IMG/VR virus record: IMGVR_UViG_2061766007_000502
Direction: 5' to 3' (one strand)
DNA length: 64,000 bases
Source of the DNA: an uncultured virus (IMG/VR IMGVR_UViG_2061766007_000502)
Taxonomy: Duplodnaviria > Heunggongvirae > Uroviricota > Caudoviricetes
Below the pieces are notes generated by a model that saw only the letters and a program-made list of their open reading frames with translations, made no database searches and was not told where the DNA came from. The position numbers were made by a program, and so were the translations under genes. Shown in pieces: positions 629 through 37,532 of the stretch; position 1 is the stretch's first letter, and the number at the start of each line of letters is the position of its first letter.

Positions 629-629
629 T

Positions 630-1106
630 ATGAATTAGATAAATAAAAAAATTACCAATCATCCCTGGTGTACTGCAATTAAGCGGACAAATATATCAGT
701 TCCAACAAAGTTTCTGCTGAAACATAATCTGGTTACAGGCAGGATTCTCGATTACGGTTGTGGTCTTGGATATGACACAGATGAATTATAGAAATAGGGA
801 TATGATATAACTGGCTATGATATTTACTACAGACCGGAATATCCCACCGGCAAGTTTGATACAGTGATCTGCAATTATGTCTTGAATGTGCTTGAAGAAG
901 ACAAACAGGCGGAAGTCATTGAAGATATAAAGAACTTGTTATCATCAAGCGGTAATGCTTATATAGCAGTCAGAAGGGATATTATCAAGGAAGGCTATAG
1001 ACTTCATGCTATTCACAGGCAATACACATATCAATGTAATGTAATCTTATAGTATGAGAGTCTTATTTGCAATAAACAATATGAAATTTACCAAATTAAA
1101 AAATGA
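630..1106 (+). CDS. Class I SAM-dependent methyltransferase domain protein (TAG readthrough)
   Basis: ATG at 630 to TGA at 1104 is open if four in-frame TAGs read through; motif ILDYGCGLG...GYD...FDTVICNYVLNVL. Confidence 0.8.
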
Positions 1107-1110
1107 TTAA

Positions 1111-1461
1111 CTTTATGGAATTAAATTCTATTTTGGTGGACAACCACCTTTTGATTTAAATGCTCGTAAGTACTATGTATAGGGCACTGAAGATGCTGAG
1201 TTAGTTCAAGAAATCAAGCAGTTCCTGAAAGATGAAGTTGGTTTGAAACCAGAAACTGTAGATAATGAGACTTTTGATGATACTGAAATGCTGTATTATG
1301 TACCAAGTCTCGGAATCAATAATTATATTCACAAACTCAAGAAAAACAATCTGTTGTCTTTGATTATTTAGAAGCAATACAAGTGCGTCAATGAGATTAT
1401 TGCCAATAAGAAATCAGAGATTCAAGAAACTAATGATGAACAGAGTGAGCCTAATCAATAA
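1111..1461 (+). CDS. Hypothetical protein, paralogue of the N-terminal domain of the next gene (start unclear)
   Basis: With TAG=Q reads KYYVQGTEDAELVQEIKQFLKDEVG...LYYV, similar to YYAEGTKNATLAKEIQKFFIDKLD...YYYV of 1506..2201; no clean ATG in the 5' part. Confidence 0.5.
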
Positions 1462-1505
1462 TCATTAATCTGAAGGTTGTTCTTTTTGTTAAAAATATTA
1501 CATTT

Positions 1506-2201
1506 ATGCAATTTACTACAACAATCAATATTAACATCAAATATTCTTATTATGCAGAAGGCACGAAGAATGCTACACTTGCTAAGGAGATTCAGAAATT
1601 CTTTATAGATAAACTTGATGTTAAGTCATGTTCTTCAATAGTACAATATAGATTTAATAATCCAGATCTTTATTACTATGTATCCGAAGATGGTGAAATG
1701 CATTCGACAAAGATAACAAAACTGCTTAGACAAGTTTTTGAAAGAAACTTCATAAAGATAAATGACATCGTCATACACAACTCACTGACTATTTCATTCA
1801 ATGATAATAGTTCTGATGTTGTAACTGAACATAATGAACAACAGAAAACAGTTAATGATGACATCATTGAGTTTTGTGACAATGATAACTCAACTGATTT
1901 GGCCAATCAAGAAGGACATGCATTTAATTATGCATTAATGGGGTTGAATAGCGGTCATCTTGTCACAAGAAAAGAGTGGTATAAAAAAGGTATATTCATC
2001 TTCAAGATGCCGAATAGAGTCATAGAGATCAGTCAATTTGACAATCCGTATCTTGAAAGTATATTCAGAACATATGACAAGCATCACATCACAGTTGAAC
2101 CGCTTATTGCTAAGAAAACTGAATTTGATACAATAGATTTGGGATATACCATATCTGAGAAAGATATACTTGCTAATGACTGGATAATTATCAGCAGATA
2201 A
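1506..2201 (+). CDS. Protein with C-terminal DUF2829/Tad2-like (Thoeris anti-defence 2-like) domain
   Basis: C-terminal ~95 aa FNYALMGLNSGHLVTRKEWYKKGIFIF...GYTISEKDILANDWIII follows the DUF2829 pattern (F..A...L..G..V.R..W...G.F....S..D.LA.DW.I). Confidence 0.7.
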   Translation: MQFTTTININIKYSYYAEGTKNATLAKEIQKFFIDKLDVKSCSSIVQYRFNNPDLYYYVSEDGEMHSTKITKLLRQVFERNFIKINDIVIHNSLTISFNDNSSDVVTEHNEQQKTVNDDIIEFCDNDNSTDLANQEGHAFNYALMGLNSGHLVTRKEWYKKGIFIFKMPNRVIEISQFDNPYLESIFRTYDKHHITVEPLIAKKTEFDTIDLGYTISEKDILANDWIIISR

Positions 2202-2205
2202 TAAG

Positions 2206-2249
2206 AACAGGATTTCCAATTATTATGTTGGAAATCCTGTTTTTTTTTT
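2206..2249 (+). terminator. Intrinsic terminator
   Basis: aacaggatttccaa / ttggaaatcctgtt inverted repeat followed by a T run. Confidence 0.8.
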
Positions 2250-2329
2250 GTAAAGTGATTTATGAAATAAACTGCATTATATTATAAGTTATGGCTGTTT
2301 TTTGTACTTAACCTATCATATAATGTGGT

Positions 2330-2851
2330 TTAAAACATCCATTTCAATTTCATATGATAGAATCGTTTGATGATTTCATTATGTCCGAATGCCCATTTGT
2401 AATCATCTATTTCTGAAACTGGTATCCATTTTATCTCTCCGACTTCATCTTTCTCATTATTCTTCTTTGAGAATTCATATTTGTCTATTGTGTCCGAAAG
2501 AATAACAAGGAATCGGTGAGAGATGTTCTGTCTTTTATCTGAACCGGGTTCATCAATCCATTCCATATCAATGAACTCACAATCTGATATATCAATACCA
2601 GTTTCTTCATATGTTTCTCTTATTGCAGCCATCTTTGTTGATTCATTGAAATCAAGATAACCACAACAACAATTCCAACATCCTACAAATTCAGGATCAG
2701 GTGTTCCCGGTCCACGTTGTGATGCAAGAACATATCTTTCATTATCTTTGTCTATGCCAAATGTCACAGCAAGGACTGCTACTGACCGGGACCACCAACC
2801 GAGGAAATTCCCGTCTTTGTCATAACATGGCTGATTCTTCAATTCTTTCAT
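2330..2851 (-). CDS. Nudix hydrolase (possible ADP-ribose pyrophosphatase)
   Basis: Nudix box GYLDFNESTKMAAIRETYEETGI; last gene of the NAD cluster. Confidence 0.85.
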   Translation of the reverse strand: MKELKNQPCYDKDGNFLGWWSRSVAVLAVTFGIDKDNERYVLASQRGPGTPDPEFVGCWNCCCGYLDFNESTKMAAIRETYEETGIDISDCEFIDMEWIDEPGSDKRQNISHRFLVILSDTIDKYEFSKKNNEKDEVGEIKWIPVSEIDDYKWAFGHNEIIKRFYHMKLKWMF

Positions 2852-2852
2852 A

Positions 2853-3620
2853 TTATATACAAGTTACACGTAATGCACAGTTGCTGTATGTTGCCATCGG
2901 CATTCTCTTGAATGATGAATTGTAGTACATGTCTTTCATCTTCTCAAGAGATTCAGGTTTAATATCATGTTCGCCTTCTCTGATCCACTTATCAAGTTCT
3001 GCATATGTGAATCCGATTTTCTCTTCATCCGGACTGCTATTCGGCAATCCGTCATCAGGTATCTTGTCAACCCATTTATCAGGCAGTTCAAGATATTTGC
3101 CGATTTGCTTGACTTCAGAGACTGTCAGGTTTCCAAGTGGAGACATATCCCCGGCAGCATCACCGAAGATAGTTTCATAGCCTATGATGTTCTCAGAGAG
3201 GTTGCAAGTATTTATTACACGACCGTTCATAGACTGTGATATAGCATAAAGCATGGTCATTCTCACTCTTGGCGGGATATTCTGCTCTGCTTGCCTTGAA
3301 ATACTGCTCAGTGCTGTATGAATGGATGCAGTAATAATTTCTATGGGAGCATAGATAGTATGTATTCCGAGATAGTCACAAATCTCATCTGCTTCATTAT
3401 AAGACTGGTTTACATCCGGCATTATGACACCGATAACTCTGTCCGGTCCCAATGCTTTAGTAAGTAATGCTGCACATATCGTGCTGTCCTTACCGCCAGA
3501 CATACCGAGAACTGCATTACAATCTTTGCCATTGCCTTCAAACCAGTTAGTTATCCACTTAATAAGTTCTTCTGTGACAAACTTAGTATTGAATCTGTAA
3601 TGAATAGGTTTGCTTAACAT
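2853..3620 (-). CDS. nadE: NH3-dependent NAD+ synthetase
   Basis: GMSGGKDS PP-loop, NIPPRVRMTMLY, GYETIFGD, DEEKIGFTY; no glutaminase domain. Confidence 0.92.
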   Translation of the reverse strand: MLSKPIHYRFNTKFVTEELIKWITNWFEGNGKDCNAVLGMSGGKDSTICAALLTKALGPDRVIGVIMPDVNQSYNEADEICDYLGIHTIYAPIEIITASIHTALSSISRQAEQNIPPRVRMTMLYAISQSMNGRVINTCNLSENIIGYETIFGDAAGDMSPLGNLTVSEVKQIGKYLELPDKWVDKIPDDGLPNSSPDEEKIGFTYAELDKWIREGEHDIKPESLEKMKDMYYNSSFKRMPMATYSNCALRVTCI

Positions 3621-3645
3621 ATAACTTCATTTTTGATTATTTGAG

Positions 3646-3736
3646 AAAAATGATAGTGACTCTTCATCCGGTTAGTCGAAATCCGAGTCACTATCAGCAT
3701 TACTTCACACTATGGCTTCTTTGTATTCAGTAATGC
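3646..3736 (-). terminator. Terminator-like hairpin plus upstream hairpin inside the NAD operon (pncB-nadE spacer)
   Basis: 12-bp stem tgatagtgactc/gagtcactatca with U-tract on the minus strand; second stem gcattact/agtaatgc. Confidence 0.55.
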
Positions 3737-3768
3737 ATTTTTATAGAGACACTTTACCGTAGTGGTTC

Positions 3769-4965
3769 TTATGCAATATGCAACTGATGTTCTGCGATTT
3801 CAAACTCTTTCTCATCACCCATATGTTTGCCAGCATCATCAGACATCTTTATCATATTCTCCCATGGATCCTTTGAAGACAGTCTGCATATCTCCGGTTT
3901 CATTACGACATTGGGCGCCTTGAAGTCCGGTATTCCAGGATCACATGTTATATCAGTTCCTATACCGAAGCCTCTCTTTGTCTTGTTATCGAAGAAATCC
4001 ATTATCTTATGTGCCTTATAGACATTAAGAGAATTTGAGAAAACTATGAGCTTTGTCTTCGGATCAATACCGAACTCTTTGAGTCTTTTTATAATCTTCT
4101 GACCGACTTCATATTCATTGCCTGAGTCTTGTCTGAAACCTGACAGAAGCAGTGCCTGCTGACGTGTCAGAGTCCTGAGAAATGAATCTGTTGTGTATGT
4201 ATCTATGAGTGCTGTTCCCAGATTGCCCTGATAAACTTTAATCCAGTCTTCAAGTGCAAGGTAATTCGCACGTTTGTAACCGAAGCATGCACCATGAAAC
4301 ATTATCCACTCATGAGCCATTGTTCCGGTCGGAATCATATCATATTTCATTGCAAAATACACATTAGAAGTGCTCTTGCATGTTTGAGACTCAATCTTTA
4401 TAAGACTTATACACTGCTCATGTGCTTCCGCACTGTATCTGCGGCGTGTGCCGAAATCAGAGAAAGGAACATTGAAAGAATTAGCATAGTGAATCTTCTT
4501 ATGGAGAATGTTCAGCATCTCCTCAGAATCATACTTATACTCATTGAATTGGTTGAGTATGAAGTTTCTTATCTCAGAGTATATTGCAAGTACAGGGATC
4601 TCATACAGTGTTGCTTTATAGAAAGTATCTTCAACTGTACATTGGAACACTCCGTCTTCATCAAACCAGAATTTTATCTTAGCCGGATTATATCTGAATG
4701 TACTGAGCCATTCCCAATACGGAGCAGGAATGTATGGTATGTTTTCAATACACCATTGCATTTCTTCTTCAGAAAGGAATAGTTCATGCAATTCATTGAT
4801 ATGCTTGTTGAACAGTTCAACAAGCATTTCTTTCTTTTCACCGGACCAACATTCTCTGTTACGGTCTGTAAACTTAAATCTGACTTCAGCAAGAGGATAG
4901 AGGCTGAAGTATGCATACGACATTGAGAACTTGTATAAGTCTGTGTCAAGTATTGATAGCATCAT
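3769..4965 (-). CDS. pncB: Nicotinate phosphoribosyltransferase
   Basis: SILDTDLYKFSM, DFGTRRR, GTMAHEW, DTY, RQDSG, GFGIGT motifs. Confidence 0.93.
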   Translation of the reverse strand: MMLSILDTDLYKFSMSYAYFSLYPLAEVRFKFTDRNRECWSGEKKEMLVELFNKHINELHELFLSEEEMQWCIENIPYIPAPYWEWLSTFRYNPAKIKFWFDEDGVFQCTVEDTFYKATLYEIPVLAIYSEIRNFILNQFNEYKYDSEEMLNILHKKIHYANSFNVPFSDFGTRRRYSAEAHEQCISLIKIESQTCKSTSNVYFAMKYDMIPTGTMAHEWIMFHGACFGYKRANYLALEDWIKVYQGNLGTALIDTYTTDSFLRTLTRQQALLLSGFRQDSGNEYEVGQKIIKRLKEFGIDPKTKLIVFSNSLNVYKAHKIMDFFDNKTKRGFGIGTDITCDPGIPDFKAPNVVMKPEICRLSSKDPWENMIKMSDDAGKHMGDEKEFEIAEHQLHIA

Positions 4966-5470
4966 ATATATTATTTTTTAAGATGAACTTATTCACAGAA
5001 GGAGTCAGGAACGGCATTGCAGTCTCATTGTTCTTGAGTTTCTCTCTTATTTCTGTAGATGAAATATCTATCTTTGAACGATCCACTTTGAATGTCTTGC
5101 AAGTGTCAAGTATGTATTCGGATTCATCCCATTCGCTGATTTCATTCATGATATCTGTTCCGCCGATTATCGTGTATTGGACATCTGACATCACATATTC
5201 ATAGAGATACTTAATCAACTGGTATGTGTATTTCGGCTGAATCATATATTCCATATCAAGGGATATTATACGTTTGTCACCGAGGTCCTGTACCATAAGT
5301 TCCACCATATTGTGCCTGAACAGATACGGTGAACTCTTTTTCTTCCATGGATTCTGCCATGCTGTAATAAACCAGACTGCATCTACTTGCTCAAGTGCCT
5401 TTATGGCTGCATATGCATGTCCGATGTGTGGCGGGTCGAATGAACCCAACATTAAACCGATTTCAGTCAT
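4946..5470 (-). CDS. nadD: Nicotinate-nucleotide adenylyltransferase
   Basis: GSFDPPHIGH, NPWK, IIGGTD, ISSTEIR; ATG at 5470 preferred over TTG at 5506. Confidence 0.9.
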   Translation of the reverse strand: MTEIGLMLGSFDPPHIGHAYAAIKALEQVDAVWFITAWQNPWKKKSSPYLFRHNMVELMVQDLGDKRIISLDMEYMIQPKYTYQLIKYLYEYVMSDVQYTIIGGTDIMNEISEWDESEYILDTCKTFKVDRSKIDISSTEIREKLKNNETAMPFLTPSVNKFILKNNIYDAINT

Positions 5471-6068
5471 TAGTGTTTTCTGTATTGTATTTTTCTTTAA
5501 AGTCAAATTTTTCTCCTATGAAAGACATACCATCATAGAATGGCTCGACATTGAAGCCGTGATTACGGAGATTCTTGTATGTCTGATAAACACAGTAGTC
5601 ACCAGCCAGTCCACATATGACATAATCATCTGTCAAAAATGCATCTATACAATCATCTTCTAAATAATTATATAATTCAACAAAGCCTTTTTCATTCGTA
5701 TATTCTTTCTTTTTCTCGAATGCACCATACTCTTCATGGTCTGAGCATGTACCTTTTTTAAAAATAAAATATCCAATATCGTTCTTAATGAGCGTATTCA
5801 TTATTTCATTGTTTATTGATGCTCCGTCAGAATCCATAAGACAATGTACAGGCCACTGACCGCCATTCTTTGCAAATGACTTGTCTTCTGGTGTATGCCA
5901 GTCCACAGTAAATATACATTCCTTTATTTCATTGTGATTATTCTCAATGTAACTGAGGATATTCTTTAGCGCATCCTCTGCTCCGGGAACATACAATGAA
6001 CCTTCAGTTTTATGGTAGAAATCCTTTTGGAAATCTACTATAATAAGTACTTTGTTTTTGTCTTCCAT
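5463..6068 (-). CDS. pncA: Nicotinamidase (isochorismatase family)
   Basis: IIVDFQKDF, GSLYVPGA, DWH, WPVHC, KG, GLAGDYCV catalytic motifs. Confidence 0.9.
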   Translation of the reverse strand: MEDKNKVLIIVDFQKDFYHKTEGSLYVPGAEDALKNILSYIENNHNEIKECIFTVDWHTPEDKSFAKNGGQWPVHCLMDSDGASINNEIMNTLIKNDIGYFIFKKGTCSDHEEYGAFEKKKEYTNEKGFVELYNYLEDDCIDAFLTDDYVICGLAGDYCVYQTYKNLRNHGFNVEPFYDGMSFIGEKFDFKEKYNTENTND

Positions 6069-6546
6069 TATTATAACTTCTTATTATTATNNNNNNNNNN
6101 NNNNNNNNNNNNNNNNNNNNNNNNNNNNNNNNNNCAAAATTTTTTGACTTTTTTTAAAAATAAAAACCAAAATACCTTATATTTGCAAAATTTTATGATT
6201 GTAAATTTTACAGCCATAATTTTTCAAATGAATTTATCATTTATGAAAAATTCATTTCAGAAAACTTTTTCGCACATTTAGAAATGTAAAATCTATNNNN
6301 NNNNNNNNNNNNNNNNNNNNNNNNNCATTTGTAAATGTTAATAAAAGCTTTATTTAGAACTATTATGCATAAAATATGCACATAAAAGTTGAATTTACAA
6401 CTATTAATTGCAAATTAATGTAACAAAATAACAGATAATGTTTATACACATTATTAATAAATAGCATCAAAAAGACTATATATTTACATTTCTAAATTAT
6501 CAAATACACTTTTTTCTTAATAAAGATTAATTTTTCCGCGTTTTAT

Positions 6547-6577
6547 TTTGCTGTTTCAAAAATTATCACTACCTTTG
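6547..6577 (+). promoter_or_regulatory. Bacteroidota primary-sigma promoter
   Basis: TTTG-N19-TACCTTTG. Confidence 0.75.
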
Positions 6578-6584
6578 CATCAAG

Positions 6585-7285
6585 TTATTAAATGAGATGA
6601 TGAATGCCGGTGATTATATTCAGAGTAGCACCGGTTGAATGCTAAGAATAACAGAAGATATCTTCAAATGGCATTGGATTGATGATGGCAATTGAATAAG
6701 ACATTTTAATCAGGTTGAGACTATCAGCATACATACTGATATTGACTCCCTCTTAGAAGTCAGTTCTTATTATGTGTTTCCCTATGTGAATAGGTTTGAG
6801 TCACATCATCCATTGCCACATTTGGACACGCAAAAAATGATAAGTTTATATATGCGATTAGCTTTAACAGGACAAGAATAATTCCCCAATTAGTTCTTCT
6901 GTTCGTGAGAATCGAAGAACTTGTTTTTAATATTATTTTCAGTCCTGAATGAACAGAGTAAAAGCAATGTTGTTGCTTATGCAGCATTTAAAATGATTGC
7001 TTTGTTACTCTTATGAGAATATGATGCTGTCAGATAACTGGCAGTTATTAATGAAAAGAATATAAAACATCCGTGAAGATAACCGACATAGTTTGGAGAA
7101 AATAACGGATAATCATTTAATAGAATAAACTAAATTTGATGGCAAATATCAAAAAATTGTAAAATTCCATTGCTGCGGTCCTGTCTGTGAAGATCGGACC
7201 GTTGTTCTGAACAAGAAAACCAAATCTATTTATTTATAGTTCATTCATCACCAGTTTTGTCTGAGAAGATAGAGCTGGTTTTACA
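6585..7285 (+). ncRNA. Candidate large structured non-coding RNA / long leader
   Basis: No long plus-strand ORF seen; many hairpins, several with GNRA loops (cctat-GTGA-atagg; ttc-GTGA-gaa; ct-GTGA-ag; ct-GAGA-ag); lies downstream of a consensus promoter. Confidence 0.5.
7069..7111 (+). repeat. Conserved RNA-like element, copy 1
   Basis: atccgtgaagataacc-N-atagtttggRgaaaataacggata, near-identical to 9557-9601. Confidence 0.85.
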
Positions 7286-8203: not shown

Positions 8204-9342
8204 GTTTTTCATATCTTATTTTGTTTTATTCTTTTCATTTTTAACTTTTTTTNNNNNNNNNNNNNNNNNNNNNNNNNNNNNNNNNNNNNNNNNNNNNNNN
8301 NNNNNNNNNNNNNNNNNNNNNNNNNNNNNNNNNNNNNNNNNNNNNNNNNNNNNNNNNNNNNNNNNNNNNNNNNNNNNNNNNNNNNNNNNNNNNNNNNNNN
8401 NNNNNNNNNNNNNNNNNNNNNNNNNNNNNNNNNNNNNNNNNNNNNNNNNNNNNNNNNNNNNNNNNNNNNNNNNNNNNNNNNNNNNNNNNNNNNNNNNNNN
8501 NNNNNNNNNCAGATGATGATATAATCGATGCTGATAAAGAGACAAATACAGTAAGTGAACTTTATAAACAATTAAAGATTCAATACAAACAATCAATAGT
8601 AATTTGTTTTGACGGTTCTGCTGGTCAATATATCAAGAACAGAAAATATATATTGAATCTGCTTTCAAAAACCTTAAATTATATATTTGATGTGTATAAC
8701 ATAAAACATTCTGATATGTTTGTTGTACACAATGATGTATTACATAAGGGAGCAACACAGTTAGAAGAATTGTAGTTGTTTGATTGCGACAATTACAAAT
8801 TAATTGCCCCAAACAATATTTAGAAAATAAAAAATATAACTAATATAAACAATTCAGCAACATTCAAACATTATCGTTATCTCACATATTATGTCAAATA
8901 CCCTGATGATATGAAATACAAAACAGCATTGTCTTTCATATTGAATTTCTTAAACAATGTTTGGGATTACAAACGCTTCAAGAATATGTNNNNNNNNNNN
9001 NNNNNNNNCCAATCCTATAATGGAACCAATAGATTTCTGGTTTTCCGGACCGGAACTGGAAAGATTTACATTTTATAAGCAATCAGAAAATAAACTTGTT
9101 TTTGACAATATAACAGATTGGGTTTATTTTGGTAATATCATATATTGGTTTTATGGAAGTGAAATAGCAAATAAAATGAGAAAGAGAATTCAAAAGAATC
9201 AAAATCCATTTGATGTGAAATGATTTTCTCTTCTCTATAAGCAGAATTGAAATTATTGATGTTATTTCTCGATTGAACATACTATGAGTATAGTTTCATT
9301 TTTTGAAAATGTCTTTTTTATATGTTAAAATGTATAAATAAT

Positions 9343-9883: not shown

Positions 9884-10576
9884 ATGATAGCGAATGGTAA
9901 ACTATATGGTGTTCTGAATGGCAGTTTAACTGAACAGCAGAAACTGAACTCAGCAGAACTGCACAGACTGTCTGACAATCTGAAGCAATTCAGTGATGAT
10001 TGTCAGAAGAATCATATGTTCAAAGCATTCGATATGACTGATGATTATTCCGTCCGTATTATAACAGAACGTCCGGAAGATACATTGACTATTGCAGTTA
10101 TGTACAGGATGTGGATAAGAAAACAGACACCTGAAGATAATGCATATATGTATGATATGAAGTTCTCTATCGGCATCGGAGAAGCCAATGCCAATTATAG
10201 TGACATAATGATGATGTCTGGCTGTGCATTCATATTCTCTAAATGGGAATATGACAATATGAAATTCGGTGAGAAAATCAGAATTGGAACATGTTTTTCA
10301 GATTCTGATAACCATTATCTTGATCTTTTCGCTAAATGTATGTCTGGGATAGTCAGCACTATGTCAAAAAGACAGTCAAGCATCTGTTATGAAATGCTTG
10401 CTGTTGATAATGTCAAGACAGATAATGTTATAGAAAGAGTGTATGCAAAAAACAATAGAATGACACGCTATATGAAATCAATTCCCATAAAACTTATACG
10501 GAAGACATTACAGCACTATGCTGACAAAATTTTAAATTTGACGTCTTCAATAGATATAAATAGAGAGTTGGTATAA
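9884..10576 (+). CDS. Hypothetical protein, possibly SatD-like
   Basis: DMKFSIGIGE...SGCAF segment resembles the SatD family. Confidence 0.45.
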   Translation: MIANGKLYGVLNGSLTEQQKLNSAELHRLSDNLKQFSDDCQKNHMFKAFDMTDDYSVRIITERPEDTLTIAVMYRMWIRKQTPEDNAYMYDMKFSIGIGEANANYSDIMMMSGCAFIFSKWEYDNMKFGEKIRIGTCFSDSDNHYLDLFAKCMSGIVSTMSKRQSSICYEMLAVDNVKTDNVIERVYAKNNRMTRYMKSIPIKLIRKTLQHYADKILNLTSSIDINRELV

Positions 10577-10745
10577 TAACATAAACATAAAAATGCCATT
10601 AGAACTGTATAAATCAAAATACAAATCTAATGGCANNNNNNNNNNNNNNNNNNNNNNNNNNNNNNNNNNNNNNNNNNNNNNNNNNNNNNNNNNNNNNNNN
10701 NNNNNNNNNNNNNNNNNNNNNNNNNNNNNNNNNNNNNNNNNNNNN

Positions 10746-11011
10746 TTGAGTTTATCTTTATATGGATAATAATCAACAGCAGAAAGCCTTACAATACGTT
10801 TCAGAATAGGTCTTTCATTCTGATGCTGACAATCCGTATTCCATGAATAATCTAATCTGTTTCCAGAACAGTATAGATTGTGCTTCTTACAATACACCTA
10901 CTTCATTTTCTACCGGATTGCTTTATTAGTAATATGATTATCCTTATCTATTCTATTTTGAATCATGCCTTTGTTATCTTTACAAACATACTTGTGTATA
11001 AAAACAGTCAT
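10746..11011 (-). CDS. Hypothetical protein downstream of the mini-array (3' end in N gap)
   Basis: Open from ATG 11011 (or 10966) with two in-frame TAGs into MYCKKHNLYC...; runs into Ns. Confidence 0.4.
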
Positions 11012-11023
11012 GAAACTTGATAC

Positions 11024-11115
11024 ATCTACTAAATGTAGAAAATGTTAGTTATAACAAAATCAGCACAGCTTTTAGTCGATTATCTACTAAAAATAGAAAT
11101 TGATGATTTACAGAC
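11024..11115 (-). CRISPR. Degenerate type V-A mini-array: 2 repeats, one ~26-nt spacer plus a possible trailing guide
   Basis: Repeat 1 GTCTGTAAATCATCAATTTCTATTTTTAGTAGAT (11082-11115); repeat 2 GTTATAACTAACATTTTCTACATTTAGTAGAT (11024-11055). Both end in the Cas12a handle (A/T)TTTCTAY-loop-GTAGAT. Spacer AATCGACTAAAAGCTGTGCTGATTTT. Confidence 0.8.
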
Positions 11116-11159
11116 AGTTGCCTGTGCAATATGTGATTATACCACACAAGCAACTGTCT
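11112..11159 (-). other. 15-bp hairpin between the cas12a stop and repeat 1
   Basis: agacagttgcctgtg / cacaagcaactgtct (one G-U on the minus strand). Confidence 0.7.
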
Positions 11160-11167
11160 TTATATCA

Positions 11168-14100
11168 TTACTTAGAATAAGGCTTGCTCTGCACAAACTT
11201 GAACCAGTCCTCATCCTTGATGTATTCAAGATAACCCTTATCATTGACAGGGAAGTCATTGTGGAGCCAGTACAGACCCTTAATCGCGATGTTGTATGCA
11301 TCATTAGCATCAGCATCCATAATACCCATACTGTTGTTAGTTCCTGTAATGAATGGATTCTCAGAAGCAACTGGAGAAATGTCAAAGCCGACATTATCAC
11401 CATTATAGTTCCTCATCTTCAGCATACACTTGAAGATGTTCCACAGCTCAACCAGTTTGCTTTCATCAAGCTCAGAAACTGTCTTTACAGACACGTCAGT
11501 GTATTGAATACCAACCTTATCGAAGAAGTTGCAGAACAGACCAGTCAGAACCTCAAGACGTTTATTCTTGCCGTAATTTCTCATTCCATGTGAAGACAGA
11601 GTCCACACATTAGTGTAGTCATTGCGGATTGTCTTGAAGTTGCGGTAGTCAAACGTGAAGTAGAACATACTATTTTTGTATGTAATTTCATTGAATGAGC
11701 CGAAGAACTTCTGCAGACTCTCAGCAGGCTTCTTCATATTGAACAGGTTCACGAAGCCGGTTGAAGGATCCATCATTGATGTATATGCAGCAGGAACATA
11801 GAATATCCAACCGTTCTGCTTGCCAAGTTCGTTGAAATTAGCCGGAGCAGTCAACTGCAATCCATCACGGACAGTTCCGCAAGTTTCGTTTGCGTTTCTC
11901 TTGAACACCAGGTAGTTCAGTTTGTCCATTAGCATTTTCTCGAAGTTCTGGTACACCTGACGCTCAATCTTATAGCGTCCACGCTTGAACTCGCTGTCGA
12001 GATTCTCCATAATCACAATCGCATTGTAGCGGAATATGAGAGATGAAATCTCGTGGACTACCTGAGAAAGATAACCGTTCTTCAGGTCTTTAATCTTCTC
12101 AATCGTAGTCCAGTTCTTCCTTGCCTCGTCACGGTTCTTCTCGACTTGCTTCATCTTCTCCATATAGTTATAGTTCCCGATCAGGTTATAACTACGCGGA
12201 GTAATGATGTTCTTACCGTGCTGATCGATTACAGATACATAGATGAGGTTGTTCTCACCACGGTCAATACCGATGATGTTGATGTCTCTCTTGTTAGCGC
12301 GGAAATTGTCAAGAACACTTTTGTTGAACTGATATAGTGACGGTGTTTCAGCTGCTACATTGTAGTTGATGACAATAGGTACATGGAAGAAGAACTTGTT
12401 CTCATAGTATCGTCTGTTCTTGACGATTTCATGTTTAGCCTTCCTTGTCTTGAGTTTAGGAAGAAGTTCTTTTTCTTTGTCAGTCAGTTGAATGTCTGCA
12501 CCATTGAGGAACAACATCAATCTCTTGTAGAGAGTACCTTCAATCGGAGTGCCGTCAGCAAATGTCTTGTTGACAAGAGTAGAACCCTTTCTGTGCTTGT
12601 AAGGTTTCTCTTCGGTTATAGCTTCCCTGAAGAAGAACTTGACACCCTGACTTGAGAGTTTATATACCGGATTCTTCATATTCTCTTCTGAGAACAGTTC
12701 TTTCCAGTATAGTGTATGAAGGTTCGGAGTTCCGTACGAACCGCTGTTGAAATCCTTGTTAGTGATGTTGAATAACAACATCTTGTTTTCATTTTGTAGG
12801 GTATATAGATACTCGAACGAAATTGGTCTCAACGACACAGCATAGCAGATAGTCTGGGTGTGGTCGCAGAATTCCTTGATTGACTTGTACTCGGAACTAT
12901 CCTTCCACAAAGACCTGAAATTCTCACTGAACATAGAGAAAGAACTGTGCTTTGACAGACCGACCTTCAAGTAGTCAATCATCTTTCTTGTGAAATCCGG
13001 ATATTTCTTGTTGAACTCCTTGAGTTTAGCGGCACCGCTGATGCCTCTCTTCTCATTGTACATATCACTGATAGTCTCGATAGGCAGATTGTACTCAGTC
13101 ACAGCAGGAGCAAGCTTAGTGCCTTTGGAGTAGAAGAACAAACGAGACAAGTTCTTGAAATCAGTCTTCTGTTGCTTAGACTCCACAAGACTCGCTGTGT
13201 TGCCGGCATACAGTCTTTCTGTATCTACATTGCTAATCTTGTCGATGTACATAGCAAGATAGTACTTACCATCTTTGATGATAATGCTACAGTCATTCCA
13301 GCCGTTGGCACGGGTTGGAGAGTCAAACTTCAGCTCAATCTTACCACCGTTAGACAACTTACGTGTCAGGTAATTACGGACCTTGTTATATAGAGGGATT
13401 ATCTGTGTGATGGTGAGCTCATCTTCAGACTCAAAAAGAGCATTATATGCAACATAGAAATCGTCTTTGTCAAGAGAATCCATCTTCTTGTTGAGACGCA
13501 ACAGATTGACAACGTTAAACAACTCAATATAATTGTCAAGGACTGTCTTTATGATCTCTTTGGCACTATCATCCTTGATAGACACATTGCCTGACTTATA
13601 CCCATTCATCAGTTCTTTGAACTGAATAATACGGGCATTATTACATATGTCAATGTATGATTTGTCAGACCATGTCTTAGTCTCAGAATCACATTTGTGA
13701 GCGACAAGACGACCTAACACATCCAACAGAGTCACAGAAGACTGAATCTCCTTTGATATTTCATATGATGCTTTTTGAGTTTGAGCCACAGAGAAGCACT
13801 TCTTGGCAAGCCAAGAATCTATTTTCTCGTCAATTTCAGCCTGACCCTTCTTAGTCTTGCTGTTCACTGTCATAGCACGGAGTTTCTCACCAAGTGCATT
13901 CCAGTTTGAACCACCGTACATCATAGCAGATAACTTGGTCAAGTTAGTGCCTTGAATGTAAACCTTTTCGAGATTGACAGTACCGTCAAGAAGACTGCCC
14001 ATAGTCTCTTTAATGCGCGTCATCAGTTTGGATGACTCAACTTCATCAAGAAATGATGATATGCTCTGCATCAATTCATCATCAGACCCAAACTGTTCCG

Positions 14101-15076
14101 GAATGAAAGACAAACGAACTCTGTCACTCAGGATCTGTTTGAATAGTTGAGTCATCTTCAGGTTACGAAGTTTGTAATTTGTATCTGGATGACTCTGAAT
14201 GTACTCATTGCCGATACTGTTGATACCTATGACGTTCTCATTAGGATTGCCGCCGATAATCCAGTTATACACTTCAATGCCCTGCTGAGAGATACAATTG
14301 TTGTAATACTCCGGCTTGAATACATCATCAAGAGTCTTACCATTTAGTTGTGCCTGAAGAGAATTCTCAGCAATTTTCAGTTCATCCGGACAGATCTCCT
14401 TGAGTTTCTCATACACCTTGATGTTATCTAAGAACTTTGGGAAGTTCTCGTTCACTACTCTGTTGGCAATAGATGTTGTCTTATCCTCATGAGAATACAT
14501 ATTCATCCTGTTGTCTTTGTAAATATCAAAGAATGCAGAGAAATTAGCAAATGAATCAATTGCTTCCAACATGTCTTCTCTGGTGGCATTCATCTTCGGA
14601 TTACTATTCTGGACAGTCTCAATGAAGTTGTTTTCATTGTTCTCCACCATATACCTTATCTGCTCTGAGATAAGATTCTTGAACTCAGCTGACATATACT
14701 TCCACCAAACATGAGACTCAAATGACTTACGGATAGACTTTCGCATTTCTTCCTGAAGAGTCTTGTAGTCGTCTGATTTGTTGATGTATGCTTCAGCAAT
14801 CTGCTGCCAAGTGACAACAGTTTCGCTAAATTGAGAAAGCACTCGACTGATGAATATCTTATGCCACTGATCAAGCATTGCCTTCATCAGAGGGTATTTC
14901 TCATGTCTGCCGTCGTCAGACATATACAGTTTATGAAGTCTATCATCTTCATTGCCGTTAATATAACGGTTCCAGAAATCTTCTGTCGTCTCACCGGACT
15001 TCAGCATCGGTTTGAGCTCAAACCTCAAGGTCTTAGAAATTTGATAAAGACCTGTAAAATTTTCTACATTACGCAT
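11168..15076 (-). CDS. cas12a: Type V-A CRISPR effector Cas12a (Cpf1), 1302 aa
   Basis: SKTLRFELKP, ENFPKFLDN, LFKQILSDR, LYNKVRNYLT, PNLHTLYW; RuvC-I IIGIDRGE, RuvC-II IMENL, RuvC-III DADAN; Nuc LKMRN. Confidence 0.95.
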   Translation of the reverse strand: MRNVENFTGLYQISKTLRFELKPMLKSGETTEDFWNRYINGNEDDRLHKLYMSDDGRHEKYPLMKAMLDQWHKIFISRVLSQFSETVVTWQQIAEAYINKSDDYKTLQEEMRKSIRKSFESHVWWKYMSAEFKNLISEQIRYMVENNENNFIETVQNSNPKMNATREDMLEAIDSFANFSAFFDIYKDNRMNMYSHEDKTTSIANRVVNENFPKFLDNIKVYEKLKEICPDELKIAENSLQAQLNGKTLDDVFKPEYYNNCISQQGIEVYNWIIGGNPNENVIGINSIGNEYIQSHPDTNYKLRNLKMTQLFKQILSDRVRLSFIPEQFGSDDELMQSISSFLDEVESSKLMTRIKETMGSLLDGTVNLEKVYIQGTNLTKLSAMMYGGSNWNALGEKLRAMTVNSKTKKGQAEIDEKIDSWLAKKCFSVAQTQKASYEISKEIQSSVTLLDVLGRLVAHKCDSETKTWSDKSYIDICNNARIIQFKELMNGYKSGNVSIKDDSAKEIIKTVLDNYIELFNVVNLLRLNKKMDSLDKDDFYVAYNALFESEDELTITQIIPLYNKVRNYLTRKLSNGGKIELKFDSPTRANGWNDCSIIIKDGKYYLAMYIDKISNVDTERLYAGNTASLVESKQQKTDFKNLSRLFFYSKGTKLAPAVTEYNLPIETISDMYNEKRGISGAAKLKEFNKKYPDFTRKMIDYLKVGLSKHSSFSMFSENFRSLWKDSSEYKSIKEFCDHTQTICYAVSLRPISFEYLYTLQNENKMLLFNITNKDFNSGSYGTPNLHTLYWKELFSEENMKNPVYKLSSQGVKFFFREAITEEKPYKHRKGSTLVNKTFADGTPIEGTLYKRLMLFLNGADIQLTDKEKELLPKLKTRKAKHEIVKNRRYYENKFFFHVPIVINYNVAAETPSLYQFNKSVLDNFRANKRDINIIGIDRGENNLIYVSVIDQHGKNIITPRSYNLIGNYNYMEKMKQVEKNRDEARKNWTTIEKIKDLKNGYLSQVVHEISSLIFRYNAIVIMENLDSEFKRGRYKIERQVYQNFEKMLMDKLNYLVFKRNANETCGTVRDGLQLTAPANFNELGKQNGWIFYVPAAYTSMMDPSTGFVNLFNMKKPAESLQKFFGSFNEITYKNSMFYFTFDYRNFKTIRNDYTNVWTLSSHGMRNYGKNKRLEVLTGLFCNFFDKVGIQYTDVSVKTVSELDESKLVELWNIFKCMLKMRNYNGDNVGFDISPVASENPFITGTNNSMGIMDADANDAYNIAIKGLYWLHNDFPVNDKGYLEYIKDEDWFKFVQSKPYSK

Positions 15077-15252
15077 ACTGTTTAACTGTTTTTAATTGTT
15101 TATATAATAAATTATTTTAAGTATTTCTTTATAGGTGGAANNNNNNNNNNNNNNNNNNNNNNNNNNNNNNNNNNNNNNNNNNNNNNNNNNNNNNNNNNNN
15201 NNNNNNNNNNNNNNNNNNNNNNNNNNNNNNAATAAAAATTAAGGTTATAACT

Positions 15253-18200
15253 ATGGGTTTAATTTATACTAATCCACAAAAATTCAATTCAGGTATTCAT
15301 TTAAATGGTGCTACACCTTTGGATGACAGACTCCAGATAAATGACATTTCAGATATTTACATCAGCAATACTACAACCGGAACTGCCGGTTGTGCTATTT
15401 ACGGTATGGCTTATGATGGTATGGTTATATCTGTGGTTGATCCGAATCACGATCACTCTAAAGATGTAATTCTCATACAGTTGAAAGATGCGACTCCGTA
15501 CAAATACGGTTCTCCTGGTGAAGTTAATGAAAATAACTACACTGAGTACTGGACTGTATCTATTAGCGGTGATGTGTCATTCGACACAAGCGTGATTGAT
15601 GCAAGCATCCATAATATTCAGACTGAAATTGCTTAGATTAAACAAAAGAACATCAGTCAGGATTCAAGTCTGAATACATTTGACTCAAGTATTCGTGACT
15701 TATATAACAAACCAGAAATACAAGCATCCCCTGTATATTAGAAAGATGGACAGAGTGGCTATGTTCTCGGTGATATAAATGATGCTCCGGGGGAAAATGC
15801 TTTTGCAGAAGGTTATGGAACAAATGCATCCGGTTTTTATTCTCATGCTGAGGGAGAAGATACAACTGCATCCGGTGACTATTCTCATGCTGAAGGTTAT
15901 AGTACAAATACATCTGGTAATTACGGTTCTCATGCAGAAGGTTAGAGTACAATTGCATCCGGCAACAGTGCTCATGCTGAAGGTCATAATACAATTGCAT
16001 CCGGCAACAGTGCTCATGCTGAAGGTGGTTCGGAATAGACAATGATTTTAGTTAAAAAAAATTACATTGCTGGTGATAATGAGATTTTTGTAGAAAGTGA
16101 TGTTCCAAAAAAAGCATTATTAACATATAATAATGAATATGCTGTTGTAGAATATAGTGGATATGATTCAGAACAACAAGCATATCTATTAGATTTACAA
16201 ACATCATTTTCATTTGATATTAATGCTAATATGCGAATAGCAATGTATAAAACTGCAAGTGGTTAGTATTCTCATATAGAAGGTTATAATACACATGCAT
16301 CCGGTGATTAGTCTCATGCTGAAGGTGACGGTACAACTGCATCTGGTGAATCATCTCATGCAGAAGGTTAGAGTACAATTGCATCTGGTGAGTCATCTCA
16401 TACAGAAGGTTAGAGTACAATTGCATCTGGTAACTGTTCTCATACAGAAGGTATTGATACTATTGCATATGGTATAGCATCTCATGTTGAAGGAGAAATG
16501 ATAGCAGCAGCTGGTAGGGGTTCTCATGCTGAAGGGGGTCAATCTTATTCATCTGATAGTAAATTCACTCTTACAAAAGATTATCAAGGTAGTAATAGCA
16601 TTTATGTTGAATATAATAGTATTTTTGGAGAAACTACTGAAGGTGATCTAAAATTGCTGTTAAAATATAATAATGAATATGTTCTTACAACAAGTTATTA
16701 TTATGATGAAGATGAACAATCATATGTATTAATCATGGATGGTTATTTATCTTCTGAAAATGAAATTCCTACTGGTACAGAAATTAATTATATTGAAAGT
16801 GGTGCTTTTGGTGATTATTCTCATTCAGAAGGTTATAGTAATGCATCTGGTGAATATTCTCATGCAGAAGGATATTGGACAATTGCATCTGGTGAACGAT
16901 CTCATGCTGAAGGTAGCAGTACAACTGCATCTGGTAATTACGGTTCTCATGCAGAAGGTGATCAAACAATTGCATCTGGTGAATCATCTCATGCTGAAGG
17001 TTTAAATAGTACAGCATCTGGTTAGGCAGCTCATGCAGAAGGATTTGATACAAAAGCAACTGGTGAAATGTCTCATGCTGAAGGTTTAAATAATACAGCA
17101 TCTGGTTAGGCAACTCATGCAGAAGGCTATGGTTCTATTGCAGTTGGTGACTATTCTCATACAGAAGGTAAAGCATTAGCAGTTGGTGAATATTCTCATG
17201 CAGAAGGAATATGTGACTCACATGATGAATTGATTTTAACACAAGCATATAGACAAGGTGCTACAACTTTATATGTTGATAGAAATGATGTTTCTATTGG
17301 TACACCTATTAATTATGATAATGAATATCGAGTAGTTGAAGAGTCTGGTGAAGGTTATATAGAATTAAATGAAGGTTTTTCTTTTGATATACAAATCAGA
17401 GGAAAAGTTTATATATATGGTGGTGCAGGTGGCAAGTATTCACATTCTGAGGGAGAAAATTGTACTGCTGCCGGTGATTATTCTCATGCTGAAGGAACCA
17501 GTGTGACTGCTTTAGGATATGCTGCTCATGCAGAGGGTGGTGCTACAACTGCATTTGGTGATTAGTCTCATGCAGAAGGTGAAAGCACAACTGCATCTGG
17601 CACCAGTGCTCATGCAGAAGGTGGCAATACAACTGCATCTGGAGAATCATCTCATGCAGAAGGTGGCAGTACAACTGCATCTGGAGAATCATCTCATGCT
17701 GAAGGTGAAAGTACAACTGCATCTGGTGAAGCATCTCATGCAGAAGGTTATGATACATCTGCAATGAGTAATTATTCTCATGCTGAAGGATATAGCACAC
17801 AAACTACTAATGAAGCAGAACATGCATCTGGTAAGTACAACAAATCAACATCAGGAAAGACTCGGTTCTCAGTTGGCATCGGCACAGCAACCAACAAGAG
17901 AAAGAATGCATTTGAGATTACTATTGATGGTAGTGTATATATTAATGATATCGGCGGATATAACGGAACAAATGTCACATCAGCAAAGAATATTCAAAAT
18001 GTAGTAAAGACTATCAACTCTTCTGTCAATACACTTGATGCAAGTGTAAGAGATTTGTATATCAACGGCAGTAGTAGTGGCGGTTCCGGTAANNNNNNNN
18101 NNNNNNTAGAGTGGTTATGTTCTTGGTGATTCAAATGATGCTCCGGGAGAAAATGCTTTTGCATATGGTTATTATACAAATGCAGACGGTGACTATTCTC

Positions 18201-20749
18201 ACGCTGAAGGTTAGTATACAACAGCATCTGGTGAAAATTCTCATGCAGAAGGCTATGAAACTCGTACAGGTGGTGACTATTCTCATGCAGATGGTTATTA
18301 TACATATACTAGCAATGTTGGAGAACACGCATGTGGTAAATGTAATTATTCAACAAGCGGAAAAACTCAATTTTCTGTTGGTATCGGCACAGATCAATTT
18401 TATGACCGCAAAAATGCATTGGAGATTACTGATGATGGTAAAGTGTTCATCTATGATATTGGTAATTATAACGGAAGAAATATCGATGATGCATCTTCTT
18501 TACAAGATATTATTTCCGGTGGCGGTAGTAGTTCCGGTGGCGACGGTTATATATCATACACAGAGTATAAAGGATATATTCTCGGTGATAGTGGTAACAC
18601 AGCAGAAGGATAGGATTCTTTTGCTGAAGGAAATCAAACATCAGCAGGAGGTGACTATTCTCATGCAGAAGGATAGTCTACAATAGCATCCAGTTACTAT
18701 TCTCATGCAGAAGGATATTCCACAATTGCTAATAGTACCAGCGCTCATGCCGAAGGATATTCTACAATAGCAGGAGGTGACTATTCTCATGCCGAAGGTA
18801 TTAACTCATCAACAAGTGCTGATAGTGCTCATGCAGAGGGATATTATACATCTGCGTTTGGCAACTATTCTCACACAGAAGGATATTATACAACTGCATC
18901 TGATGAAGCAGCTCATGCAGAAGGTGATTATACAACAGCATCTGGTTATGCATCTCATGCAGAGGGTTAGTATACAAATGCAACTGGCGAGTCATCTCAT
19001 TCTGAAGGTTTGAATACAAATGCATCAGGTGCATATTCTCATGCAGAAGGTGAATATACTCAAACAACTAATGAAGCAGAACATGCATCAGGAATGTATA
19101 ATAATTCAACAGAAGACTTGACACAATTCTCAGTTGGTATCGGTACTGATGACGATGACCGCAAAAATGCATTTGAGATTACCAATGATGGTAAAGTATT
19201 CATCTATGATATTGGTAATTATGACGGTACTAATGTCGATGATGCATCTTCTTTACAAGATATTATTTCCGGCAGTGGCAGTGGCAGTGGTGATGGTGGT
19301 TATATAATATATAATGAAGATGAAGGATATGCTATTGGTGGTAATACTGCAACAGGAGAAGATTCATTTGCAGTAGGTTATAATACAACAGCATCCGGTC
19401 GAAATTCTCATGCTGAGGGTGCTATAACAACAGCATCTGGTGTTTATTCTCATGCTGAGGGTTATTAGACAACAGCATCTGGTGAATAGTCTCATGCTGA
19501 GGGTTCGGTAACAAATGCAACTGGTCAATCATCTCATACTGAAGGCACCAATACAACTGCATCAAAATGGTGTGCTCATGCTGAGGGTTATTAGACAACA
19601 GCATCTGGTGAATATTCTCATGCTGAAGGATAGAATACAATTACAACAGGTTATGTTACTCATGCAGAAGGTATAGATACATCAGCATTAGGACAATATT
19701 CTCATGCTGAAGGCAAGAGCACAATAGCAAATTTAAATAGTCATGCAGAAGGTTATCAGACTCAAGCAATGAATTATTCTCATGCAGAAGGTTATTAGAC
19801 ATTTGCATTCACAAAATCACATTCTGAAGGACAAAATACTTTTGCTATAAAAACATCACATGCAGAAGGAAATGGTACTGTTGCTTTATATAATCAATCA
19901 CATGCAGAGGGATATGGTAAGTTTTCAGGAACAAATGTAATTGAAATTACAAATGTTTCCGGAGAATATGAAGAACAAAAAACCATTACAACTGACACTG
20001 CTCTTAAAGTAGGAGATTTGATAATACAATATATAGATCCTCAAAATCAAGAATATAATTATAATCATTCAATACAATAGTATGATTTTGATGAAGGATG
20101 TTATGAAGTTGAAGAATTGCTAAATCAATCTGGTACAATTGTAAAACTTTCGGGTTTGTCAAAATATACTTCGATAAAAATAGGAAAATGTTATAAATTT
20201 ACACCTTCAGATGGCGGTGCTTTTGCAAATAATGCACATTCAGAAGGTTACCAAACTGTTGCAAATGGTTATGCATCTCATTCTGAAGGTGAGTATTCAA
20301 CTGCATCCGGTCAAAATTCTCATGCAGAAGGACATACTACAACTGCATCTGGAAGTTATGCTCATTCCGAAGGTGAGGTTACAACTGCATCTGGTAATTA
20401 CAGTTCTCATGCAGAAGGTCATCGGACAACTGCAGATGGTGAGTATGGTGCTCATGCAGAAGGATATTATACAACTGCATCTGGTGAATCTTCACATGCA
20501 GAAGGTAAAAATACTCAAACAACTAATGAAGCAGAACATGCATGTGGTAAATACAATTTATCTACTTTAAATCAAACATTATTTTCAATAGGTAACGGTA
20601 CATCTCCAACAACACGAAAGAATACTATTGAGGTTGATAAGAACGGAAATGTATATATTCAAGGTATAGGTGGTTATAATGGTAAAAATGCAACAGACAG
20701 TAGTAGTCTATAGGAAATAATTGACTTTTTAATGAGTCAGCATAGCTAA
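15253..20749 (+). CDS. Long SHAEG-repeat fibre/adhesin (YadA-head/Hep_Hag-like beta-roll), many in-frame TAGs
   Basis: Dozens of 14-aa (T)TASGxxSHAEG repeats in blocks capped by FSVGIG...RKNAFEIT..G.V.I modules. Continuous with TAG=Q except for a one-base frame offset across the N run at 18093-18106. Confidence 0.8.
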
Positions 20750-23674: not shown

Positions 23675-23746
23675 TGGAGATTGGTATAATGGTTATTACA
23701 TCAGATTTTGGTCCTGATAATAGCAGTTCGAATCTGCTATCTCCAA
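23675..23746 (+). tRNA. tRNA-Gln(UUG)
   Basis: Cloverleaf; anticodon loop TT-TTG-GT; T-loop TTCGAAT. Confidence 0.9.
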
Positions 23747-23753
23747 CTAAAAT

Positions 23754-23828
23754 GGTGGTTGTAGTTCAGTTGGTTAGAATACCAGATTGTGGCTCTGGTG
23801 GTCATGGGTTCGAATCCCATCAATCACC
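23754..23828 (+). tRNA. tRNA-His(GUG)
   Basis: Cloverleaf with G-1 and C73; CCAGA-TTGTGGC-TCTGG. Confidence 0.93.
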
Positions 23829-23836
23829 CTAAAAAT

Positions 23837-23908
23837 GCTTCAGTAGCACAGTGGTAGTGCAGCTCACTTGTAATGAGCAGGTCGTTGGTTCGAATCCTAC
23901 CTGAAGCT
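23837..23908 (+). tRNA. tRNA-Thr(UGU)
   Basis: Cloverleaf; GCTCA-CTTGTAA-TGAGC. Confidence 0.93.
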
Positions 23909-23915
23909 CATATAT

Positions 23916-23986
23916 TGGAGCATCGGATAATGGCAGTCCGTGAGATTCTGGTCCTCATAGTTTGGGTTCGATTCCCAATGCTCCTA
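23916..23986 (+). tRNA. tRNA-Gln(CUG)
   Basis: Cloverleaf; loop TT-CTG-GT; 1:72 mismatch. Confidence 0.85.
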
Positions 23987-23994
23987 CAATATTC

Positions 23995-24066
23995 TGGAGA
24001 TTCGTATAGCGGTTATTACATATGACTCTGGATCATAGAAGGGCGGTTCGAATCCGTCATCTCCAA
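23995..24066 (+). tRNA. tRNA-Gln(CUG)
   Basis: Cloverleaf; TATGA-CTCTGGA-TCATA. Confidence 0.9.
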
Positions 24067-24074
24067 CATATTAC

Positions 24075-37408: not shown

Positions 37409-37532
37409 TATGAACATGATAAAAAGAGGGATAGAGATATCTCTCTTTTTATTTTTTCTTTCCGGAACGTGCATTTTTTTAATTTTAAAAATAAATACAT
37501 TAAAGTATTATTTTGGTAATTACAACTATCAG

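Follow-up and report, generated by a model that had tools for sequence, protein, structure and literature searches.

What can a phage do with a CRISPR nuclease when the accompanying array is almost gone and nothing is present to renew it? This question is raised by a 64-kb stretch of DNA (64,000 nt; hereafter the window) from an uncultured virus of the Caudoviricetes (IMG/VR record IMGVR_UViG_2061766007_000502), in which a cas12a gene is followed by only two diverged CRISPR repeats. We analysed the gene, its mini-array and its surroundings, together with related loci, population variants and candidate targets. On balance we lean, by a modest degree, towards a working type V-A module that has no adaptation genes, is carried by a large TAG-recoded rumen phage, supplies two fixed CRISPR RNAs (crRNAs) whose handles have been kept, and has a target that is absent from the collections searched.

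The product of cas12a matched the NCBIfam equivalog TIGR04330 (cas_Cpf1) from residue 5 to residue 1298 of 1302 aa, scoring 849.7 bits against a cutoff of 300, which confirms that the gene is full-length, as the first-pass annotation had it. The REC1, REC2, PI, RuvC and NUC domains (PF18501, PF21918, PF22222, PF18516 and PF18510 in Pfam) were all recovered above their cutoffs. In an alignment of the phage protein with 42 relatives (alignment A1), the RuvC/Nuc motif residues D938 (IGIDRGE), E1024 (MENL), D1254/D1256 (DADAN) and R1222 were invariant in all 43 clade members, and the motifs lined up with those of solved Cas12a chains. From the Cas12a literature, we take D938, E1024 and D1254/D1256 to be the RuvC acidic triad and R1222 the Nuc arginine. 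Alignment to chain 8sfh_A placed H800, K809 and K860 of AsCas12a on phage residues H828 (KHRKG), K837 (LVNK) and K886 (IVKNRRY); the motifs singled out earlier as the pre-crRNA processing site were thus the right ones, and the three residues were also invariant in the 43 members of A1. The effector is predicted to be intact, with its RuvC, Nuc and pre-crRNA-processing residues complete.

Exact matches to the handle pattern TCTAY-N5-GTAGAT occur at just two sites of the window, 11082-11097 and 11024-11039; they share the strand of cas12a and are spaced 58 nt apart. In shuffled sequence the mean was 0.15 matches per 64 kb, and 3 of 100 shuffles reached two. The first repeat (R1) starts 50 nt past the TAA stop of cas12a, and it agrees with the second (R2) at 17 of 20 handle positions and at 7 of 16 positions in the 16-nt 5' parts (manual count), so the earlier description of two repeats about 50 nt downstream that share their 3' handle was accurate, and the ~26-nt spacer described between them is the longer of the two lengths that the repeat boundaries allow (Table 1). 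The terminal 10 nt of the two handles, TTTAGTAGAT, are identical. Both repeats end in AAUUUCUAC-loop-GUAGAU on the cas12a strand, as expected of a V-A array, but the several near-identical full-length repeats of such an array are replaced by two diverged ones. An alignment with the repeats of seven related loci showed that R1 and R2 retain every handle column that is invariant among them, and the R2 handle folds into the canonical 5-bp stem with a 5-nt loop (-4.1 kcal/mol, z = -5.28). The array therefore consists of two repeats of type V-A, which follow cas12a immediately on its 3' side and share its strand.

Searches for adaptation genes were negative. Families of Cas1, Cas2 and Cas4 had no match among 52 open reading frames (ORFs) of the window compared with PHROGs or 34 compared with Pfam, and when the whole window was searched by tblastn with six Cas4/Cas1/Cas2 proteins of related loci, the best E was 0.56. 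The cas4, cas1 and cas2 genes that stand beside cas12a in a canonical adaptive V-A locus are therefore missing within the 64-kb window, in agreement with the first-pass annotation. N stands at 1,986 positions of the window, spread over 18 runs (e.g. 8253-8509, 28113-28475 and 55612-56245), two of which, 10636-10745 and 15141-15230, flank the cas12a module. Since Cas12a appears intact, acquisition genes are lacking and the two repeats are worn, the locus probably supplies two fixed guide RNAs.

Table 1 Features of the cas12a module and its flanks (positions in the window)
Feature	Position	Strand	Remarks
cas12a	11168-15076	-	1302 codons; TAA stop (11168-11170); zero in-frame TAG
Hairpin between the cas12a stop and R1	11112-11159	-	21 bp; 3' arm covers the first 6 nt of R1
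Repeat 1 (R1)	11082-11117	-	36 nt; handle 11082-11101, AATTTCTATTTTTAGTAGAT; exact pattern match
Spacer 1	11060-11081	-	22 nt, lengthening to at most 26 nt (11056) with a shorter R2
Repeat 2 (R2)	11024-11059	-	36 nt; handle 11024-11043, ATTTTCTACATTTAGTAGAT; exact pattern match
Trailing guide-like stretch after R2	11000-11023	-	~24 nt; T5 run at its end
Variable non-coding stretch 3' of the array	10777-10950		edge of the conserved module
Intergenic region 5' of cas12a	15077-15252		176 nt; 15141-15230 reads N; divergent fibre-like gene at 15253

To see how the module varies in nature, we compared it with metagenomic contigs. The stretch was partly present in 20 runs from 13 studies among the matches listed, mostly bovine gut metagenomes, and we aligned on 10746-12500 the contigs of three DNA runs (X3, X4 and X6, each from a different study), together with those of an RNA library. 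The three DNA variants were ~98% identical to the window. Synonymous and non-synonymous changes in cas12a (11168-12500) stood at 13:4 in X3 and X6 and at 11:3 in X4, and cas12a is under purifying selection in the phage population. In the array core (11024-11117) the sole difference was a 1-nt deletion in the R1 loop (11089), and spacer 1 was identical in all three. The trailing guide carried one change, 11008 T>C at guide position 16, with another downstream of it at 10983. The block kept among the variants extends to 10951; the adjoining 174 nt (10777-10950) were replaced by 27 nt in the X3, X4 and X6 contigs, and a second X4 contig retained them with a 14-nt insertion. The earlier claim that the guides are frozen is supported in so far as both repeats and spacer 1 are kept in three other studies, over a divergence of ~2%. 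We judge the locus to be a real, fixed-guide phage V-A module that probably works.

Folding of 10960-11175 on the minus strand gave a minimum free energy of -58.8 kcal/mol (z = -4.99), and none of 200 shuffles was as stable. The loop/arm junction of the 21-bp hairpin reads TGGTATAAT; an Rfam scan of this hairpin returned only sub-threshold look-alikes of microRNA hairpins, and it could be a candidate terminator, promoter or operator. In the stretch after R2, a weak 4-bp hairpin stands ahead of the U5 run. No mismatch-free Bacteroidetes-type -7 motif was present in the visible DNA upstream of cas12a. An ORF at 10746-11011 on the minus strand was rejected as a gene, as it has two TAG codons and no family match and, by our reading of the joint, is disrupted in the variants.

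The origin of the effector was traced through its relatives. A protein search returned 1058 relatives, two of them close (98% and, for P0003, 86% identity, on short contigs) and the next at no more than 60%. Among 185,579 species genomes, the top matches were rumen metagenome-assembled genomes (MAGs) labelled Prevotellaceae (loci L086, 55%; L087, 41%; L094, 39%) and Bacteroidaceae (L088, 40%), and all others were at 37% identity or less. Neither IMG/VR, scanned with the single protein, nor INPHARED, searched by tblastn, yielded a relative; a profile scan of IMG/VR found relatives at 28-33% identity only. A 40-row tree was built by a quick maximum-likelihood method, with support by the Shimodaira-Hasegawa-like approximate likelihood-ratio test (SH-aLRT) only. 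In it the phage trio P0001, P0002 and P0003 formed a clade (support 100, stem length 0.48), which lies inside a wider group, also of support 100, that includes L086 from a Prevotellaceae MAG as well as L006 and L008 from metagenomes. The Cas12a of four IMG/VR contigs fell in other clades. The phage Cas12a is thus placed, by its sequence, as originating inside the rumen Prevotellaceae Cas12a clade.

The closest sampled relatives share the canonical V-A layout, L006 (60% identity) with cas4-cas1-cas2 and 15 repeats and L008 (53%) with cas1-cas2 and at least 8 repeats; the phage locus does not. Adaptation genes and arrays vary across the clade. L086 has cas2 only, with 20 repeats, and L087, L088, L094, L029 and L021 are without adaptation genes and have an array of 8-11 repeats directly after cas12a. 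Because several bacterial relatives in the clade also lack them, the missing adaptation genes are not phage-specific. Like the phage locus, these integrase-less bacterial loci have the array directly following cas12a, but they are chromosomal and hold 8-20 near-identical repeats where the phage has two diverged ones. Loss of the adaptation module is common in the clade, and the diverged two-repeat array is the distinguishing feature of the phage copy. Integrase-less Cas12a loci of gut and rumen bacteria have already been described as 'subtype VIII', with fewer spacers, in the available part of a paper (PMC12375029). In an IMG/VR contig of 440,868 bp (L004), which encodes a Cas12a at 28% identity, no V-A handle match lay within 8 kb on either side. 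Five single IMG/VR matches to the R1-type handle pattern lay in AT-rich DNA without a nearby array and were read as chance.

The carrier is a large TAG-recoded phage from bovine gut/rumen samples. A T4-like portal (Portal_T4) was recognised at 2e-64 once TAG was read as Q, a baseplate wedge PHROG is present in the window, and with TAG as a sense codon the split ORFs fuse into long structural genes and YadA-head fibre proteins (e.g. 33410-37378, 37410-42755 and 49188-50912, within the structural region 15253-63954); portal, baseplate wedge protein and recoding together support the earlier identification of the element as a phage. By contrast with the structural-type genes, in which 53 of 11,290 codons are TAG, none of the 1302 codons of cas12a is (Poisson P = 0.002); the NAD-salvage genes and other small genes also have zero in-frame TAG. 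The GC content at third codon positions of cas12a, 0.51, exceeds that of every other gene in a comparison of 26. The window has a cluster of five tRNA genes at 23675-24067 (Gln-TTG, His-GTG, Thr-TGT and two Gln-CTG), and no suppressor tRNA was detected across the 64 kb.

Relatives of the portal at 42-78% identity occur on IMG/VR contigs, and one at 70% lies on a contig of 673,114 bp with terminal repeats. Synteny with this 673-kb relative was limited to the fibre-gene family; nothing else matched, and a neighbouring 230-aa protein at 9884-10576 was unmatched. Two long fibre-like genes of SHAEG-type YadA-head repeats occupy 15253-20749, divergent from cas12a, and G404, the 673-kb relative, has at its ends (245-6629 and 671309-671650) six paralogous matches to the N-terminal 127 aa. 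A TAG-free gene of resolvase/transposase type (48399-49007; PHROG 6620; Pfam Resolvase N-terminal domain) stands among the TAG-containing structural genes and is possibly a small mobile element inserted there.

We then asked what the two guides could recognise. The collection scans required exact words (20-mers), and the genome samples comprised 401 and 151 genomes of one family. In the window, both guides matched only themselves at up to five mismatches over the full length or up to two in 16-nt seeds, and among the matches listed there was no prefix run longer than 7 flanked by a protospacer-adjacent motif (PAM). In IMG/VR, exact 20-mers of spacer 1 and of the trailing guide gave 0 and 0 matches, as did TTTV followed by the first 16 nt of each guide (0 and 0). 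The 20-mer of spacer 1 was absent from the 185,579 species genomes, and its 22-mer, with up to three mismatches, from four clade genomes; in 401 genomes of the L086 family the 22-mer had six matches, all with three mismatches, against 12 for the reversed control. The trailing guide, searched as TTTV and 20 nt, had one match in 151 genomes of that family, with three mismatches, some of them in the seed. With the whole 131-nt array as query, blastn returned nothing with E < 0.1 from either 50,697 phage records or 72,556 plasmids, and neither guide had a match with up to three mismatches in five related megaphage records. The first-pass annotation had suggested a conserved host gene, a competing element or a promoter as the target; in the collections covered, neither guide led to any of them.

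No protospacer was thus found for either guide across all the collections searched, and this weighs against a working fixed-guide module, as do several further results. In the R1 handle a U-G pair replaces the C-G of relatives, and the handle folds weakly (-2.2 kcal/mol); when spacer 1 is included, the handle can pair with the spacer instead, and this alternative hairpin has a slight advantage (-4.3 kcal/mol, not better than in shuffled sequence). The second handle position is U in R2 and A in all seven related repeats. A terminator scan found none at the array or after R2 by its criteria, and a promoter scan found nothing convincing for the array. The conservation of the 94-nt array is only weak evidence, as one change was seen where ~4 are estimated at the synonymous rate and ~2% divergence, a difference that is not significant. 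Contigs of the RNA library lie on cas12a only (11289-11470 and 11891-12052), with none on the array, and no processed crRNA was seen among them; they could be DNA carry-over and are weak evidence, at best, of cas12a expression. Finally, the phage genome is probably much larger than the 64 kb that are visible.

Several of these results would fit a decaying leftover, in which cas12a came with part of an array that has since shrunk to two eroding repeats, the guides are inert, and cas12a persists for now or serves independently of guides. Besides the lack of a target for both guides, the 5' parts of the repeats are near random similarity, the R1 stem is weakened and the second base of the R2 handle is unusual. 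In addition, none of the five megaphage relative records searched (G404-G408) has a cas12a, and the gene is therefore dispensable for the phage family. We nevertheless regard such decay as unlikely. The ratio of 13 synonymous to 4 non-synonymous changes points to purifying selection on cas12a, all catalytic and processing residues are retained, both handles keep a pairable stem and share their last 10 nt, and the array block was retained in three other studies while the adjoining DNA was replaced.

Regulation offers another use for guides that lack a full-length target. In bacterial V-A loci, a CreR, which consists of one repeat-like unit, a spacer-like stretch and a terminator, is described as repressing the cas12a promoter through a 10-nt PAM-flanked match, and phages are described as copying it (bioRxiv 10.1101/2024.10.29.618823, available part); phages with CracrVA1 carry the RNA alone and hijack the host Cas12a, according to the same part of that preprint by Liu et al. 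Standalone repeats are frequent in V-A loci, occurring in about half of them, mostly upstream of cas12a, as far as the accessible text of another study goes (PMC10120712). Guides of this type would need a partial match of only ~10 nt, would bind without cutting, and could throttle the phage's own cas12a promoter or silence a host gene, for example the host cas12a. R2 with its trailing stretch and T5 run may correspond to the CreR layout. Like CreR and CracrVA1, it combines a degenerate repeat, its handle kept, with a short guide and a terminator-like U run, and it is carried by a phage. Solitary handles also occur upstream of other cas12a genes. Metagenome loci L045, L048, L049, L051-L054 and L056 (~31% identity) have one handle-like match ~215 nt upstream of cas12a in addition to a downstream array, an arrangement that agrees with published standalone repeats and CreR. 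In X6, 19 nt of a 14.4-kb contig repeat the R1 handle, and a 21-nt match to the 3' end of cas12a lies 3.9 kb beyond on the same strand, a spacing that by itself suggests a diverged cas12a that starts ~65 nt after a solitary handle.

We consider a regulatory role quite improbable for the phage guides, however. Of the 176 nt ahead of cas12a, 86 are visible, and these showed no PAM-flanked guide seed (prefix run of at least 7, or at least 16 matches overall), either among the matches listed or by eye. Prefix matches of at least 9 nt in 196 loci numbered 14 and 16 for the two guides, below the shuffled-spacer means of 33.8 and 37.7, and among them none had a TTTV PAM and none lay at a cas12a promoter. 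The nuclease site of the effector is complete, and the phage, unlike those that carry the RNA alone, is predicted to encode its own nuclease-competent Cas12a.

The array would be a side show if the guides came from elsewhere, that is, from a conventional array (perhaps with cas1-cas2) in another part of the phage genome or from V-A crRNAs of the host. In favour of this, the window covers only 64 kb, compared with 673 kb for the relative with 70% portal identity. The phage handle is also close to the repeat consensus of rumen Prevotellaceae, and cross-loading of host crRNAs is for that reason conceivable. On the other hand, the window contains no further exact handle, and the one-mismatch handle matches at 35910 and 39031 lie inside ORFs (35777-36892 and 37920-40694). 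The array also stands directly after the gene, as it does in all four IMG/VR Cas12a loci that have arrays, and host crRNAs could target the phage itself. An outside source of guides is, in our judgement, very unlikely.

We therefore return to a fixed-guide module as the preferred reading and set out how it might operate; its transcription, processing, expression timing and any target are what we infer from the locus. A phage lineage would have captured cas12a from a Bacteroidales V-A locus of the rumen Prevotellaceae type, and cas4-cas1-cas2 would have been lost or never taken, with two repeats kept. The array would be transcribed in the cas12a direction, and the RNase site of Cas12a would cleave 5' of each 20-nt handle, releasing crRNA 1 (handle 1 and the 22-26-nt spacer) and crRNA 2 (handle 2 and the ~24-nt trailing stretch up to the U run). 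The 5' portions of the repeats would be free to decay, because they have no integrase to serve and are trimmed off in maturation, while the handles would stay under selection. Decay limited to the 5' part would fit a need for a crRNA handle and not for integrase-competent repeats. As cas12a is without in-frame TAG, the translation machinery of the host could read it without modification early in infection. Once loaded, the nuclease would then cut a fixed DNA target, or only bind on a partial match. The likeliest target would be a competing mobile element, or a locus of the host, that the searched collections do not contain.

A bolder version would make the early, standard-code Cas12a and its two hard-wired guides a weapon for host takeover or counter-defence, which would cut or silence a specific locus of the uncultured Prevotellaceae host, a resident defence island or a satellite. 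This version fits the position of cas12a, ~5 kb from genes of counter-defence type, and we regard it as speculative and rather improbable. The block in question (1506-6068) begins with a Tad2-like protein (1506-2201), which is followed on the minus strand by genes for a Nudix hydrolase, NAD synthetase, nicotinamide phosphoribosyltransferase, nicotinamide mononucleotide (NMN) adenylyltransferase and an isochorismatase-family protein. Phage ICP1 provides an analogy, since it turns its own CRISPR system against PLE. Compared with ICP1, the module here would be reduced to a fixed, two-guide 'restriction enzyme', its repeats stripped to bare handles.

Among known systems, the canonical V-A loci of FnCas12a, AsCas12a and LbCas12a share with the phage locus the effector family, the domain order, the RuvC/Nuc and RNase residues and the 3' handle on the gene strand. 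The phage locus differs from their cas12a-cas4-cas1-cas2-array order in having no adaptation genes, in having two non-identical repeats instead of many, and in its phage carrier. Viruses reportedly also carry mini-CRISPR arrays, one-spacer repeat-spacer-repeat units said to have been described in 2019 by Medvedeva et al. and by Faure et al. and thought to serve conflicts between viruses; these are said to be cas-less, to use the effector of the host and to have spacers that match related viruses. In the present phage, by contrast, the effector is co-encoded, and the five related megaphage records held no match to its guides.

The nearest precedent is the CRISPR-Cas of huge phages (Al-Shayeb et al. 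2020), which, in the part of that paper available, is without Cas1/2/4, keeps the catalytic residues of its effectors and has a median of six repeats (PMC7162821). The types named in that part are II, V-I, V-U, V-F and CasPhi, and phage Cas12a is not mentioned there; spacers with phage and host targets are reported. Our locus is likewise phage-borne and compact, without Cas1/2/4 and with a predicted intact effector, but its array is at the two-repeat minimum, its repeats have diverged and no target was found. A survey of 741,692 phage genomes lists one Cas12a, going by its accessible text (PMC12676247). The module thus belongs to a kind already known, adaptation-less phage CRISPR-Cas, of a subtype that is rare in phages.

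For the biology of such phages, the locus would represent a natural minimal design, in which an intact nuclease is served by two guides, each behind a handle of only ~20 nt. It also offers a natural experiment in what selection retains of a V-A repeat after adaptation has been lost. In this recoded phage an acquired gene has stayed without the reassigned codon, which bears on when such genes are expressed. Should the guides prove inert, the locus would give a snapshot of CRISPR decay following transfer to a virus; once a target is located in rumen data, it would offer a tractable system for how phages use a fixed-guide nuclease.

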